Assembly (NCBI GenBank): GCA_930990975.1
Contig: CAKNRR010000001.1
Location: 9,756 to 73,755 of the forward strand
Reading direction: 5' to 3'
DNA length: 64,000 nt
Origin: an uncultured Clostridia bacterium
Lineage (GTDB): Bacteria > Bacillota > Clostridia > Christensenellales > UBA1242
Under the pieces are notes generated by a model. The model made no database searches and was not told where the DNA came from. It worked only from the letters and a program-made list of their open reading frames with translations. Positions within the stretch are counted from its first letter, which is position 1. Each line of letters begins with the position of its first letter. Positions 9,305-59,935 of this stretch are shown here, one piece after another. A program made the position numbers and the translations under genes.

Positions 9305-9526
9305 TATAATGATTAATAAATGAAGTTTTAAACGATTATAATTAATTATAAAAAAGTTATCATAATCAAACAAAAAAGTTTTAAATGAAATATGATGTTT
9401 AAAAAAAATGTAAATCGAAAATAAATAAAAGTTTTTACACAAAAATAAGCAGCGAACCCAGCGTTCCAGATAATTAATGTTATTTTGAAAGCTGGGTTTT
9501 TTATATGCTTATGACAATGAAAGATT

Positions 9527-9559
9527 AAAAAAGCTCAGCTTAATGCTGGGCTTTTTTTT
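9527..9559 (+). terminator. rho-independent terminator
   Basis: aagctcagc / gctgggctt stem (one G-U pair), loop ttaat, T8 run. It is preceded by a second hairpin with the same 3' arm at 9455..9502. Confidence 0.7.
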
Positions 9560-9618
9560 GTTTAAAATTTTTTTTTCGAACGGACAAGTGCTGTCCTATC
9601 GAGTTTTATACACTTAAT

Positions 9619-9993
9619 TTGAAATTAAAAGAAAGGAGGGAAAACGATAAGTTGGATTTAAAATATTCAAGCATCACTGCAGATATACTGAATGTTTTGA
9701 CTGATGGCAAAGTTCACACAATGCAAGAAATCGCAGATCAAGTTGAAGTCAGCCAGCGCACAGTCAGACGACACATACAATCACTATCCTATCGTTTTCC
9801 TATTCAGACTTTTAAGGGAGGAATTCAAAAGGGAGGTGTATACATTGAAAAAGAATTTATTTATCAAGGCAAAATAAGGACAAAAGAGGAAATTGAAATC
9901 ATCAAAGAAGCACTTGTCTTGATGAAAGAAAGGGAAGAGGAGAAAGATAAAAAATGTTTGATAGAAAATCTTATAAATGAATTTACTTTATAG
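9619..9993 (+). CDS. HTH (HTH_11/DeoR-N type) DNA-binding protein
   Basis: VHTMQEIADQVEVSQRTVRRHIQSL helix-turn-helix. The start may be the in-frame TTG at 9652, after RBS AAGGAGGG. Confidence 0.6.
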   Translation: MKLKERRENDKLDLKYSSITADILNVLTDGKVHTMQEIADQVEVSQRTVRRHIQSLSYRFPIQTFKGGIQKGGVYIEKEFIYQGKIRTKEEIEIIKEALVLMKEREEEKDKKCLIENLINEFTL

Positions 9994-10152: not shown

Positions 10153-10238
10153 TGGTGCCGAAGGCGGGAGTCGAACCCGCATGAAGTTGCCCTCGACAGA
10201 TTTTGAGTCTGTTGCGTCTGCCATTCCGCCACTTCGGC
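10153..10238 (-). tRNA. tRNA-Leu (anticodon CAA), type II with long variable arm, CCA encoded
   Basis: Reverse complement GCCGAAGTGGCGGAATGGCAGACGCAACAGACTCAAAATCTGTCGAGGGCAACTTCATGCGGGTTCGACTCCCGCCTTCGGCACCA folds as a cloverleaf. The anticodon loop is CTCAAAA. Confidence 0.93.
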
Positions 10239-24211: not shown

Positions 24212-26815
24212 ATGGTGGAACAAATCAATAACAATATGAATGATGTTGATGACAATTTCTCAAACAATGGTCAGCCAATGACTAAAGAAGAAATCATGGC
24301 TGAAGAGCAAAGAATCATCGAAGAATTCAAATATGGCAAGAAAGGTAAAAAACATAAACCTGAGAAGAATAATGAAGAACCTACAGGTAAAAAGAGCGGC
24401 GGGAAAGGAATAATATTTGCAGTTGTCTTTGTCATTGTTGCTGTTATTGTGGGGCTATGTGTTTACTTCTTTGTTATAAAAGACAATGATAAAGAAGAAA
24501 CAACAGAGAAAGGTCAATATGGTGTTTACAGCAATAATGAGGACTACGGCATTGTAGATTGCATATACTCAGAAGGAAGTGGTGACCTTACTATGACTGC
24601 TTATCCAAAAGGACAAAGTGTATTTTTAGGTTGGGCACAAGATAGCGTATATGGAGAAATTGTTTCTCAAGATGCAACCATGACAGTAAATTTTGATGGC
24701 AACAAAAATGTCAAATATTATGCCTTATTCAATCTTACAACAACAAATTATAGTTACAGAAACATTAATTATACATTATTTGTAGAAGCTAGACTTGCAA
24801 CTGCAACAGGGCTTACACAACAATATTCAAACGCTACACTTGAGCTTCCTAAATATGTTCAAGCAACAAGTGCAGACTATATGACTTACAAAATAGCAAG
24901 CAATGCTTTTAATAGTGATAAAGTCACTCAAATAAGACTTCCATCAAGTATAATAGAAATTGGCGATGAAGCATTCAAAAACTGCAAAAATGTTGAGTCA
25001 GTTTTTATAGATGAACAAAATAAGTTCTATGATGATATGGATGGAAAGGGAATTTTAGACAAAAATACAAATAATGTTGTTTTTGCGACAGCATCAGTTA
25101 GCGAAATCCCAGATGGTGCTACTGAGATTGCTGATGGGGCTTATTATGGAAAAGATATAGAAACAATAATTATCCCAGCAAGTGTTGAAAAAATTGGTGA
25201 AGAGGCTTTTGCGAATTGCTCAAATTTGACAGAAGTTATTTTTGAAGGGGACTCAAATTTAAAAATCATTTCAAACAAAGCCTTTGCAAATACTGCTATA
25301 AAAAACATTACATTGCCTGAATCATTGTTAGAAATTGGTGATGAAGCCTTCTACGGCTCAAGTTTAAATCAAATAACTATTCCTGCAAGCACTACAAAAA
25401 TTGGACAGAAAGTTTTTGAAAACAACAAATCTTTGTCAAGAGTGATTATAAATTCTCAAATTACAGAAATTTCTTCATCTACATTTAAAGGATGCAACAA
25501 CTTGTTGAGCGTGATTCTTCCAGACAGTTTAAAAGTTATAGGAGAGAGCACATTTGAAGATTGCACGAAACTTGAAAGCCCTGCTTTCCCAACAAATATT
25601 GAAGATATAAAAACAAATGCTTTCAAAAATTGTGATGCAATAACTAATATTGATTTGACTGGAATTTCTACTTTAAAATCAATTGGAATAAGTGCATTTG
25701 AAAGTTGCGATAAATTGGCAGCGGTAAAATTGCCTGCAAATTTGCAAACTTTAGGAAATGCTTGCTTTAAGAATAACCCAGTTTTAGACGAAGTTGAATT
25801 CGCAGAAGGAATAAAATTGACTTCAATACCTGACCAATGCTTTATGGGTGCAGGCGCTTTAAAGACAATAGATTTGCCTTCAACTTTGACCAAAATAGGA
25901 AACCAAGCTTTTGAAGGCTGTGACTTTACTGTATTAACTCTTATAGGTGACTTGACTTCAATTGGAGAGAAAGCTTTTGCAAACAATGAAAATTTAAGAC
26001 TTGTTAAATTAACTTCTTCAGATTGCACTCTTGCAAATTCAAATGCTTTTGAAAATGCCAACATTGCATTGGTAATAATTGTTCCTAAGGCTAATATAGA
26101 CACTTATAAGTCAGAAAATGGTTGGAGTGATATTTCAGATAAAATCTATGCTATTGAAGATACTGTTATAGATGGAAATGGTTTCGTTTTTACAATTAAT
26201 CATTCAATAGAGCCAAAAAGTGCAATTCTTTTAGGAACTAATAGTGATGCAGTCCTAAATGCAAATATTCCTGAAAAAATTATTATTGAGCAGGTTGAAT
26301 ATTATGTTGAAAAAATCAAAGCTCACGCATTCAATGATTGCGCAAAGATATCAAGTGTAAATATTCCTGCAAGAGTTTTTGAAATAGGCGAGGGTGCGTT
26401 CTTGGGATGTTCAAACATTCAAAGTATAGAAGTTTCTGATGAAAATAAAATATTTAAGGACGACAACAGAAATTTAATTGTTTATAAAGATTCAGGGAAA
26501 CTTGTTTTAGGATGTTCTATGAGCAAACTTACAGATTCTGTAAAAACTATTGGTAAATATGCTTTTGCAAATGTGACTATGACAGAACTTGAAATGCCAG
26601 CAGTTACAAACATTGAAGAGGATGCTTTTGTGGGGGCAAACATAAATGTCATTATAATGGGTTCCACAACACCTCCAACAATGAATAATGATGAGTTTGC
26701 TGATATGAGCAATTTATCAAAGATATATGTTCCAAGTGACAGTGTTGATGCTTATAAAACTCATCCAGTTTGGTCTAACTATACTGATTTAATTGATGAT
26801 ATTGCAAATAAATAG
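24212..26815 (+). CDS. membrane-anchored BspA-type leucine-rich repeat (LRR_5) surface protein
   Basis: N-terminal charged region plus TM (IIFAVVFVIVAVIVGLCVYFFVI). Many repeats are of the form IP.SV..IG..AF..C..L..V (IGDEAFKNCKNVESV, IGEEAFANCSNLTEV, and others). Confidence 0.85.
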   Translation: MVEQINNNMNDVDDNFSNNGQPMTKEEIMAEEQRIIEEFKYGKKGKKHKPEKNNEEPTGKKSGGKGIIFAVVFVIVAVIVGLCVYFFVIKDNDKEETTEKGQYGVYSNNEDYGIVDCIYSEGSGDLTMTAYPKGQSVFLGWAQDSVYGEIVSQDATMTVNFDGNKNVKYYALFNLTTTNYSYRNINYTLFVEARLATATGLTQQYSNATLELPKYVQATSADYMTYKIASNAFNSDKVTQIRLPSSIIEIGDEAFKNCKNVESVFIDEQNKFYDDMDGKGILDKNTNNVVFATASVSEIPDGATEIADGAYYGKDIETIIIPASVEKIGEEAFANCSNLTEVIFEGDSNLKIISNKAFANTAIKNITLPESLLEIGDEAFYGSSLNQITIPASTTKIGQKVFENNKSLSRVIINSQITEISSSTFKGCNNLLSVILPDSLKVIGESTFEDCTKLESPAFPTNIEDIKTNAFKNCDAITNIDLTGISTLKSIGISAFESCDKLAAVKLPANLQTLGNACFKNNPVLDEVEFAEGIKLTSIPDQCFMGAGALKTIDLPSTLTKIGNQAFEGCDFTVLTLIGDLTSIGEKAFANNENLRLVKLTSSDCTLANSNAFENANIALVIIVPKANIDTYKSENGWSDISDKIYAIEDTVIDGNGFVFTINHSIEPKSAILLGTNSDAVLNANIPEKIIIEQVEYYVEKIKAHAFNDCAKISSVNIPARVFEIGEGAFLGCSNIQSIEVSDENKIFKDDNRNLIVYKDSGKLVLGCSMSKLTDSVKTIGKYAFANVTMTELEMPAVTNIEEDAFVGANINVIIMGSTTPPTMNNDEFADMSNLSKIYVPSDSVDAYKTHPVWSNYTDLIDDIANK

Positions 26816-26888
26816 GATAAGGTTTAATTTAAAAATATTTTGGTGGTTTGATTGTAAAGTTAATTGATTTAAAAGCATGGATTAAAGT

Positions 26889-26992
26889 GTGCGGAGAAAG
26901 CAAAAAAAGTTTGAAAGAAATTTTCAAACTTTTTTTAACGCAAAATTATGCGTTGCCATAAAGCCAAAAGGCTTTATGGGCTTTCTCCGCAC
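26889..26992 (+). other. candidate structured RNA/DNA element: perfect four-way junction (copy A)
   Basis: P1 is 26889..26901 paired with 26980..26992 (13 bp, gtgcggagaaagc/gctttctccgcac). P2 is 26902..26936 (15 bp, loop gaaat). P3 is 26937..26954 (6 bp). P4 is 26956..26979 (10 bp, loop aaaa). Only one junction nucleotide is unpaired. Confidence 0.55.
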
Positions 26993-27246
26993 CAACAAAC
27001 TAATCTAAACCCCACGCCATCTACGCCAATACCTCAGCCAATATTCAATGCTAAACCCTCACGCCCAAAATCATTCCAAACCACTCCAATAAACAGCACC
27101 AATGAATTCTGCTAGCGACCTGTATTATAAACTTTATATATATAACCCCAGCCATTTATTCCTAAATCTTTCTTTATAAAGAAGGTTTTTATGAAAAGCG
27201 AATTTAAAAACAATTTTCTTAAAATAGTCAAAATTGATAAAAATGC

Positions 27247-27275
27247 TTGATTTATAAAAATATATGTGTTATAAT
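27247..27275 (+). promoter_or_regulatory. sigma-A type promoter for ylxM-ffh
   Basis: TTGATT, 17 bp, TATAAT, with a TG extended -10 (tgttataat). Confidence 0.5.
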
Positions 27276-27313
27276 GCACAAGTAAAGTTAATTTGCTTTA
27301 CAAGGAAGGCAAA

Positions 27314-30701: not shown

Positions 30702-30874
30702 AAAAATATTAAAATTTTATATAAATATTAAAAAAATAAAAAATAAATAAAAAAAATAATTTAATTATTAAATTAAAATAATTATTTAATAAAAAAATAA
30801 AACAATAAAAAATATTAAATAAATTAATAAATAATTTTATTTATTTTTTTAATTAATTTTTTAAATAATAAATA
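30702..30874. other. 173-bp tract that is essentially pure A/T
   Basis: Between the trmD stop and the rbgA RBS I find a single non-A/T base (C at about 30803). It occupies the slot where rplS normally sits. Confidence 0.9.
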
Positions 30875-39430: not shown

Positions 39431-39509
39431 GCCGAGAAGCAAATTTTGCATGCAAAATTTAAAAATGCTTACGCATTTTGCACAAACGAAAGTTTGTGCG
39501 CTTCTCGGC
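39431..39509 (+). other. candidate structured RNA/DNA element: four-way junction (copy B)
   Basis: P1 is 39431..39440 paired with 39500..39509 (gccgagaagc/gcttctcggc). P2 is 39441..39460 (20-nt palindrome). P3 is 39462..39479 (7 bp, loop ttac). P4 is 39480..39499 (8 bp, GAAA loop). One junction nucleotide is unpaired. Confidence 0.55.
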
Positions 39510-46746: not shown

Positions 46747-46912
46747 TACAAAACAAAGTTTGTAAAAAGAATCAATGATATAATTTATAAAAAAGGACAT
46801 AATTTATAAATTTTGATTTTTTATTGTTTAAAGAGCATAAATGCTCTTTTTTTTGTTGTTGACATTTCTCTTTGCGCATGTTAAAATAAAATGTCAAAAA
46901 AAGGGGGATAAT

Positions 46913-59860: not shown

Positions 59861-59935
59861 GTTCCCATAGTAAAGTGGATATTACAAGCCCCTCCTAAGG
59901 GCTAGTCACAGGTTCGAGTCCTGTTGGGAACACCA
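59861..59935 (+). tRNA. tRNA-Arg (anticodon CCT), CCA encoded
   Basis: GTTCCCA acceptor stem, D arm GTAA/TTAC, anticodon stem AGCCC/GGGCT with loop CTCCTAA, T arm ACAGG TTCGAGT CCTGT, and the 3' end TGGGAACACCA. Confidence 0.92.

Follow-up and report, generated by a model that had tools for sequence, protein, structure and literature searches.

A clade-restricted family of intergenic palindromic elements with exactly three hairpins inside a closing stem in gut Clostridia

A 64,000-nt stretch of DNA (hereafter, the window) from contig CAKNRR010000001.1 of an uncultured gut Clostridia bacterium with low G+C content (~31%), related to Christensenellales, contains two intergenic elements in which a closing stem surrounds three perfect hairpins: copy 1 at positions 26889 to 26992 (104 nt) and copy 2 at 39431 to 39509 (79 nt). 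Scanning ~1 Mb of DNA from related genomes, we found that these two copies belong to a family of ~23 distinct elements (~28 instances, or ~1 per 20 kb), every one of them intergenic. The family is confined, in the strict scan described below, to one genus-level clade, its three-hairpin architecture is invariant, and pairing is retained while the sequence drifts. We give about an even chance to the reading that the elements form a family of dispersed intergenic repeats that are palindromic, defined by their structure, and restricted to one lineage; such a family would resemble REP/BIME sequences or MITEs in lifestyle and not in sequence or architecture.

In copy 1, the closing stem of 13 bp is formed by the perfect pairing of a 5' arm at 26889 to 26901 (GTGCGGAGAAAGC, a variant of the family consensus GGCGAGAAARC) with a 3' arm at 26980 to 26992 (GCTTTCTCCGCAC). 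Enclosed by this stem are hairpin 1 (H1; 26902 to 26936, an A/T-rich stem of 15 bp with a 5-nt loop), hairpin 2 (H2; 26937 to 26954, 6 bp, which is an 18-nt perfect palindrome with 26948T, the majority allele among 14 strain-level copies) and hairpin 3 (H3; 26956 to 26979, 10 bp with the loop AAAA, the more G+C-rich hairpin). The only unpaired junction nucleotide is G26955, and a single G is found at the same junction in the elements L013b and L010 when these are turned to the orientation of copy 1 (loci outside the window are given by L numbers). Copy 2, located in the parE-parC spacer, has a 10-bp closing stem with arms at 39431 to 39440 (GCCGAGAAGC) and 39500 to 39509 (GCTTCTCGGC), and its three hairpins, spanning 39441 to 39499, lie at 39441 to 39460, 39462 to 39479, and 39480 to 39499 (8, 7, and 8 bp, respectively). 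The first of these is a 20-nt perfect palindrome, A39461 is the sole unpaired junction base, and the hairpin region was identical in three other assemblies of the window species.

When folded as RNA, copy 1 reached a minimum free energy of -58.1 kcal/mol (z = -12.6; 0/200 shuffles as good) and copy 2 reached -39.4 kcal/mol (z = -7.9; no shuffle folded equally well), with all pairs being Watson-Crick in both. DNA parameters, as well as the minus strands of copies 1 and 2, resulted in the same predicted fold. In a sliding 110-nt fold across the whole window, the two copies were the most stable positions (-55.5 and -46.1), the next being at -39.6. The third most stable fold, at 9440 to 9565, consists of a long hairpin (9454 to 9499) followed by a classical terminator (9526 to 9560); it lies upstream of a gene starting near 9640 and may be a leader or attenuator. 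The coordinates, the 13-bp closing stem, the hairpins of 15, 6, and 10 bp and the unpaired G26955 given for copy 1 in a preliminary description of this DNA were thus exactly confirmed, and folding bore out its claim of the same architecture at 39431 to 39509. Its view that this is no chance palindrome was supported. Its statement that the stems are GC-rich holds for the closing stem and H3 and fails for H1, which is nearly pure A/T.

The family was delineated with two complementary scans of the window and 46 parC loci of relatives (873 kb), using first-order Markov sequences as a control. The first scan, which accepted any closing stem enclosing at least two hairpins, returned 20 matches, each with exactly three hairpins, compared to 0 in the control. 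In the second scan, closing stems were ignored and chains of adjacent perfect hairpins were sought; this resulted in 25 chains of exactly three hairpins, 21 of which had a closing stem of at least 7 bp, and again 0 in the control. No chains of four or more hairpins were found, and two-hairpin chains were near background (80 versus 59). Decayed copies are rare, since a relaxed scan that tolerated mispaired stems yielded hardly anything more (20 closed elements versus 0 in the control, with almost no decayed intermediates). Further members were identified on a metagenome contig (L110) and at the ffh loci of relatives (L124 and L126). The recurrence of the architecture noted earlier from the two window copies therefore extends to ~23 distinct elements with three hairpins each, compared to none in the Markov-shuffled controls.

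The distribution of the family was narrow. The strict scan found 20 elements in the 439 kb of loci where ParC is at least 78% identical to that of the window and 0 in the 434 kb of more distant loci, and the close relatives, in total, contained ~26 instances in ~520 kb. Two additions in the distant set came from the hairpin-chain scan, namely the element L042 and a tandem variant, L043. The latter, at L043 18130 to 18600, consists of three tandem copies of a 157-nt unit in a 920-nt spacer, without any Rfam match; within each unit, three short hairpins are enclosed by a small closing stem (TGTGATG/CATCACA), and an additional long hairpin is present. With a ParC that is 57% identical, this genome is a distant one, in which the same architecture may have taken another form. 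A search with the closing-stem pattern in 2.9 M viral contigs gave 33 matches, all of them chance matches and none with the three-hairpin fold, while a longer closing-stem pattern gave 38 matches in 241 M metagenome records, of which only L110 was a true member. These pattern searches, therefore, indicate that the family is rare outside the clade and that the pattern alone does not yield the fold. No match was found when copy 1 and its tail were compared to plasmids and phages using blastn, and our literature search found no description of four-way-junction or cloverleaf intergenic repeats.

Individual units are 79 to 125 bp long, with an outer inverted repeat around exactly three short palindromes. 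The arms of the closing stem are perfect terminal inverted repeats of 9 to 13 bp or more with the loose consensus GGCGAGAAARC / GYTTTCTCGCC, for which subfamilies include GYGCGAAAGT, RACTATGTGMT, and AGGAAGC, and the inner halves of the arms resemble an A-tract and a T-tract. When oriented alike, most copies displayed the same order of hairpins, i.e., an A/T hairpin of the AAATTTTTAAA type, then a hairpin with an A-rich 5' arm, and then a G+C-richer hairpin starting with G, with 0 to 2 unpaired junction nucleotides per element. The hairpin sequences themselves are divergent, and copies within one genome could not be aligned outside the closing stem.

With stems that vary in length by as much as 10 bp and with low sequence identity, MAFFT could not hold the helices of the real copies in register. 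Covariation was therefore counted in a normalized alignment of 6 to 8 junction-proximal pairs per helix from 20 elements. Here, 99.6% of the cells were paired, a percentage that is partly by construction, since the scans select well-paired elements, and that to this extent counts against our reading; the diversity of pair types is not affected in this way. Both sides varied at 26/26 pairs, cells with double changes numbered 230 compared to 56 in shuffles, and one-sided changes were seen in 3 cells only. Shifting the 3' partners along the alignment reduced pairing to 37 to 51%. Together with the double substitutions that separate orthologues, these results support the earlier claim that the structure is kept while the sequence diverges.

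The palindromy was symmetric between the strands. G-U pairs made up 6 of ~842 pairs on the plus strand and 7 of ~842 on the minus strand (<1%). Relative to the upstream gene, 13 elements were oriented one way and 6 the other, and the elements occupied co-directional (~11), convergent (~6), and divergent (4; L032, L042, L124, and L126) spacers. A comparison of the orthologues L013b and L039b revealed no single substitutions and a minimum of 4 double ones, and the closing stem of L039b had 9 extra bp, paired on both sides. Paired insertions and indels were also seen at hairpin tips between orthologues. Neither the 9-bp extension nor the paired tip indels could be attained by point mutation in one step. 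Taken together, these results, along with the varying presence among relatives and the uncompensated polymorphisms within the species (see below), point toward palindromy at the level of the DNA and away from an RNA made from one particular strand. Loops were self-complementary above the level of shuffled ones (a noncomplementary core of ≤2 nt in 24/60 loops, compared to 14 expected), and four hairpins were perfectly palindromic through the center. Replication template switching is known from published work to generate perfect stems and to restore them (PMC8794818). The paired extensions, the tip indels, the palindromic loops, and the 26948T allele in H2 would be footprints of this process, in which one event is enough to form, lengthen, or mend a stem.

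The preliminary description had argued for a functional RNA or single-stranded DNA (ssDNA) structure rather than a repeat. We instead found a lineage-specific dispersed repeat family and no evidence of RNA action. The rarity and strand equality of G-U pairs, the placement in either orientation and within co-directional, convergent, and divergent spacers alike, the uncompensated polymorphisms among strains (see below), and the lack of the element in relatives at both window loci all speak against an RNA function.

Copy 1 lies 73 nt 3' of a BspA-type leucine-rich repeat (LRR) gene (24212 to 26815) and ~300 nt 5' of the ylxM-ffh promoter. A comparison of 24212 to 27292 with L123 to L126 showed that the LRR gene and the 477-nt spacer that follows it, located between a radical-SAM (HemN-like) gene and ylxM, occur in the window species only (14/14 strains examined). 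In the four related species (L123 to L126), the radical-SAM gene adjoins ylxM, or other accessory genes intervene. Since the radical-SAM-ylxM region of these species lacks both, the LRR gene and the long spacer, including copy 1, are an accessory insertion of the window species. Copy 2 is found within the 255 nt that separate the parE/gyrB-like gene from the parC/gyrA-like gene and was missing from the parE-parC spacer of 23 relatives, two of which (L018 and L019) have an element with the same architecture and a different sequence in this spacer. More generally, presence and absence of the element varied in the same spacer between relatives, and related subfamily members occurred at non-orthologous loci (L012 with L124; L013b with L010). 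Small open reading frames (ORFs) in the spacers of both copies were low-complexity frames only, and the motif ATGRATTRAAG, which precedes both window copies, was not enriched in the window. A further spacer, at 30709 to 30874, is extremely A/T-rich and made of long imperfect inverted repeats with arms of up to 59 nt that are 71 to 85% complementary; its position is orthologous to the element at L039 1372 to 1467.

Several relatives have an element where the window has a plain terminator, i.e., after parC, in the SSB-to-ABC-transporter spacer, and in a convergent spacer. In the window, the SSB-to-ABC-transporter spacer contains a simple intrinsic terminator on the plus strand (46830 to 46857), and the hairpin of this terminator shares the 14-mer GAGCATAAATGCTC with a hairpin of the L010/L013 element in the same spacer. 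The 14-mer was found nowhere else in 1.45 Mb, with a 1-nt variant at L013 6611. Judging from this shared sequence, either the terminator may be a remnant of an element or the element may have been built around the terminator. At L008 18260 to 18560, the SSB-family gene is followed by an insertion of 300 nt or more that is G+C-rich, apparently structured, and without a gathering-score Rfam match; the close relative L011 has only a terminator at this place. T-runs of at least 5 nt directly followed 4 to 5 of ~19 distinct copies, with L039b flanked on both sides, and some copies adjoined an ordinary terminator. The two window copies had no U-tract, and the terminator scan called none at the elements (the tabulation of simple terminators under-calls hairpins flanked by A/T tracts and was not used quantitatively). 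Given the few T-runs, the neighboring ordinary terminators, and the window copies without U-tract, termination would be at most an occasional, co-opted role.

The promoter scan found none upstream of either window copy on the plus strand. The upstream flank of the L010/L013 copy contains a conserved promoter-like TTGATA-N15-TATAAT, ending 8 nt before the element. Directly 3' of copy 1, positions 26993 to 27120 form a C-rich, G-poor tract, the sole such plus-strand stretch in the window. This tract was hypervariable across strains, with three haplotypes that differ by many substitutions and indels and are all G-poor. Since its composition is conserved without its sequence, it looks like a Rho-utilization (rut) site, here placed 5' of the promoter of ylxM. 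The tract may be linked to the element and is not a general feature of the family; most other copies lack a C-rich tail.

The evidence on constraint was mixed. The orthologous pairs L013b/L039b and L006a/L016a persist without unpaired intermediates, despite saturation of the 4-fold degenerate sites in the flanking genes (0.33 to 0.45 identical for L013b/L039b and 0.42 to 0.47 for L006a/L016a). The L010 and L013 copies were identical at 94/94 positions, with ~90% identity in ~30 nt of flank, compared to only 0.53 to 0.74 at neighboring 4-fold sites; the patch of ~155 nt that comprises the element and ~30 nt on each side (L010 17336 to 17490, L013 16268 to 16422) was 97 to 100% identical between the species. 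Within the window species, on the other hand, 14 strains displayed ~8 polymorphisms in the stems of copy 1, all uncompensated, at a density similar to that of the upstream flank. These were G26894A (4 strains), A26902G (2 strains), T26977G, which breaks an H3 pair (2 strains), C26964A, which also breaks an H3 pair and is accompanied by a loop cluster (1 strain), A26991G (1 strain), and uncompensated 1-nt indels in the A7 and T7 runs of H1 (2 strains). Single mismatches were also seen in the close species pairs L016/L040, L008/L011, and L018/L019.

Either strand of a unit, as ssDNA or RNA, folds into an almost gap-free four-way junction. If the elements are dispersed palindromic repeats, the arms would be kept Watson-Crick mainly by replication template switching (quasipalindrome correction), helped by weak selection, and copies would spread through some trans-acting activity, without any sequence-specific RNA function. 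Where transcribed, as in the 3' untranslated region (UTR) of the LRR gene and the parE-parC spacer, the junction may act as a very stable, orientation-independent roadblock or processing site; by analogy with enterobacterial REP/BIME sequences, it would be a candidate 3'-exonuclease barrier, RNase III substrate, or terminator helper. Several observations weigh against this reading. No target-site duplication was seen, with no direct repeats flanking any of 25 instances, and neither a transposase nor a larger parent element turned up in the loci scanned, where consensus ends likewise did not occur as long-range pairs. BLAST alignments of the flanks ended at coding borders, and the spacers were too diverged for empty-site comparison. 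Copies within a genome are far more diverged than those of typical active REP or MITE families, so that recent transposition was not shown. The persistence past synonymous saturation and the L010/L013 identity point to real constraint or recent transfer, and such persistence is not predicted for a purely selfish or neutral repeat. Finally, template switching alone leaves the rule of exactly three hairpins unexplained, and the invariant number implies that a selection or recognition step reads the four-way junction. The possibility raised in the preliminary description that the element is a lineage-specific repeat fragment of a mobile element was right as to the lineage-specific repeat, while no parent mobile element was found.

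The last point leads to a more specific and more tentative reading, which we consider rather unlikely, namely that selection acts on the perfect four-way junction as such, which would be a new class of genetic elements defined by their structure and formed by ssDNA at the replication fork or by RNA. Equally tentatively, a hairpin- or junction-specific protein (an HUH nickase, a resolvase-like enzyme, or a double-stranded RNA-binding protein) might read this junction and either copy the element to new sites or serve a host task. This would account for the three hairpins always found in ~23 diverged copies, for the closing stem being the sole conserved sequence, and for the persistence past synonymous saturation. 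A related proposal, and in our judgment an unlikely one, is that a structure-specific enzyme acts on the folded single strand to copy or mobilize the element; candidates would be an HUH/Y1 nuclease (RAYT or IS200 type), a nickase resembling Rep, or a recombinase that resolves junctions. The closing stem would then be the place of binding and nicking, and the three hairpins would supply the geometry that the enzyme needs, by analogy with REP/RAYT and the T-shaped parvoviral inverted terminal repeat (ITR). The conserved closing stem around a varying interior of invariant hairpin number would suit such an enzyme, as would the lack of target-site duplication, which is shared with HUH-mobilized elements, the occurrence of both interior orientations between the same kind of arms, the subfamily members at non-orthologous loci in different genomes, and the confinement to one clade. 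However, the Pfam lists revealed no candidate enzyme gene, a RAYT (Y1 transposase) gene included, in any neighborhood (~20 kb per related genome); neither a conserved flanking tetranucleotide nor near-identical paralogues within a genome were found in the DNA scanned.

We also regard it as doubtful that the family is a dedicated cis-acting RNA module, i.e., a stabilizer of 3' UTRs or intercistronic mRNA, an RNase III site, or an elaborated (bidirectional) intrinsic terminator. All of the copies from the first scan (20/20) follow the 3' end of a gene, with 6 between convergent genes, and in several relatives an element stands at the place of a simple terminator of the window (after parC, in the SSB-to-ABC-transporter spacer, and in the convergent spacer). 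The T-runs after 4 to 5 distinct copies and on both sides of L039b, the A- and T-tract-like inner arms of the closing stem, the orthologous persistence past synonymous saturation, and the 100% identity between L010 and L013 would also be accommodated. Yet a U-tract is missing from both window copies, four of the elements are located in divergent spacers, orientation is without bias (13 versus 6), G-U pairs are strand-symmetric at <1%, ordinary terminators stand beside several copies, and stem-breaking polymorphisms are common within the window species. Improbable, in our view, is a host element acting at the DNA level, in which cruciform-prone palindromes at the ends of genes absorb or sense supercoiling or bind topoisomerase or a nucleoid protein. 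In Escherichia coli, BIMEs are bound by gyrase and IHF, and the strand-symmetric, orientation-independent palindromy, the copies in untranscribed-looking divergent spacers, the sequence-unrelated elements that occupy the parE-parC spacer in two lineages, and the somewhat enriched convergent spacers would be in line with this; nevertheless, extruding three cruciforms and an outer stem from duplex would be energetically costly, no protein-binding motif was identified, and most relatives are without the element at the same sites. Least credible, to the point of being very improbable, is an independently transcribed trans-acting small RNA with the junction as a stabilizing 5' domain and the C-rich tail as a seed that pairs with Shine-Dalgarno sequences. 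C-rich tracts occur 3' of both window copies, and the TTGATA-N15-TATAAT upstream of the L010/L013 copy is conserved with the element, but no promoter was found upstream of either window copy, most copies lack a tail, and the tail is hypervariable between strains.

To our knowledge, dispersed palindromic repeats (REP, BIME, and MITEs) are known mainly from Proteobacteria and a few Firmicutes, as single or double hairpins with similar sequences. What is new in the present family is that the conserved property is a precise architecture, a closing stem and three hairpins with near-zero unpaired junction bases, across copies that can no longer be aligned. The family thereby offers a natural system for studying the origin and upkeep of perfect stems, i.e., template switching versus selection via G-U intermediates, and for finding the factor that recognizes four-way junctions in the single-stranded DNA or RNA of bacteria. 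In practical terms, it can be used as a marker and in genome annotation for this little-studied clade of gut Clostridia, and it is a caution for the discovery of noncoding RNA (ncRNA), in that strong covariation alone does not prove RNA function.

Comparisons with known classes agreed with the earlier statement that the element matches no known ncRNA class. Apart from two tRNAs elsewhere, no Rfam family (release 15) matched the window at gathering score, nor did any match six related loci, and permissive Rfam scans of both spacers gave noise only (≤18 bits versus cutoffs of at least 50). ARAGORN, searching for tRNA and tmRNA, found only tRNA-Leu at 10153 and tRNA-Arg at 59861, and none at the elements. 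The elements share with the tRNA cloverleaf the four helices at one junction, whereas their helices are 6 to 15 bp or longer (13, 15, 6, and 10 bp in copy 1) and lack D/T loops and junction linkers, and the Rfam tRNA model was negative. Retron msr/msd or reverse transcriptase (RT)-associated ncRNA was rejected; the neighbors are the LRR gene, ylxM, ffh, parE, and parC, and no RT domain was found in any neighborhood. To bidirectional intrinsic terminators the elements are similar in the succession of A-tract, hairpin, and T-tract, in the position after stop codons, and in the homology of the L010/L013 hairpin to a window terminator; they differ in having three hairpins and an outer G+C clamp, and most of them, including both window copies, lack a U-tract.

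Among repeats, the closest in lifestyle are the REP/BIME sequences, which are also dispersed intergenic palindromes, mostly at gene ends and in convergent spacers, lineage-specific, orientation-independent, able to fold on either strand, and without target-site duplication. They have been described as mRNA 3' stabilizers, attenuators, and protein-binding sites that are mobilized by a Y1 transposase (PMC3333891, PMC3184786). However, a REP is a single imperfect hairpin of 20 to 40 nt with a conserved 5' tetranucleotide, and its copies are alike, while the elements described here are 79 to 125 nt long and highly diverged, with four helices and perfect stems, and no GTAG-like motif was seen. We therefore do not assign them to REP/BIME: they share the dispersed, intergenic, lineage-specific copies and differ in the single-hairpin form and the similarity of copies. 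MITE-type repeats (Correia, ERIC, BOX, RUP, and bcr1) have terminal inverted repeats, are ~100 bp long and intergenic, and can fold as RNA, and some are RNase III substrates or terminators. In surveys of stem-loop repeat families, including these, the structures do not go beyond a single long hairpin or a neighboring pair (PMC2267715). MITEs have target-site duplications and copies of similar sequence; in the elements found here, no duplication was seen, the interior sequence is not conserved, and the hairpins always number three.

Two further systems are comparable in that a folded single strand is the working form. In integron attC sites, as in the present family, structure is conserved while sequence and length are free, and the site works as a folded single strand. 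They are, however, characterized by R and L boxes with R''/R' core sites (RYYYAAC / GTTRRRY), extrahelical bases, cassette ORFs, and an integrase, compared to GGCGAGAAARC, bulge-free stems, and housekeeping neighbors here, and were rejected on these grounds. The ITR of parvoviruses such as adeno-associated virus has a conserved outer stem that encloses small palindromes, a branched ssDNA form, and an interior in two orientations, known as flip and flop, and is read by an HUH Rep protein. It has two internal hairpins (T-shaped, three-way) and forms the ends of a linear ssDNA genome, whereas the elements in this study have three, are chromosomal and intergenic, and have no Rep gene nearby. The parvoviral ITR would nonetheless be their nearest known architectural analogue, as an analogue rather than as a family to which they belong.

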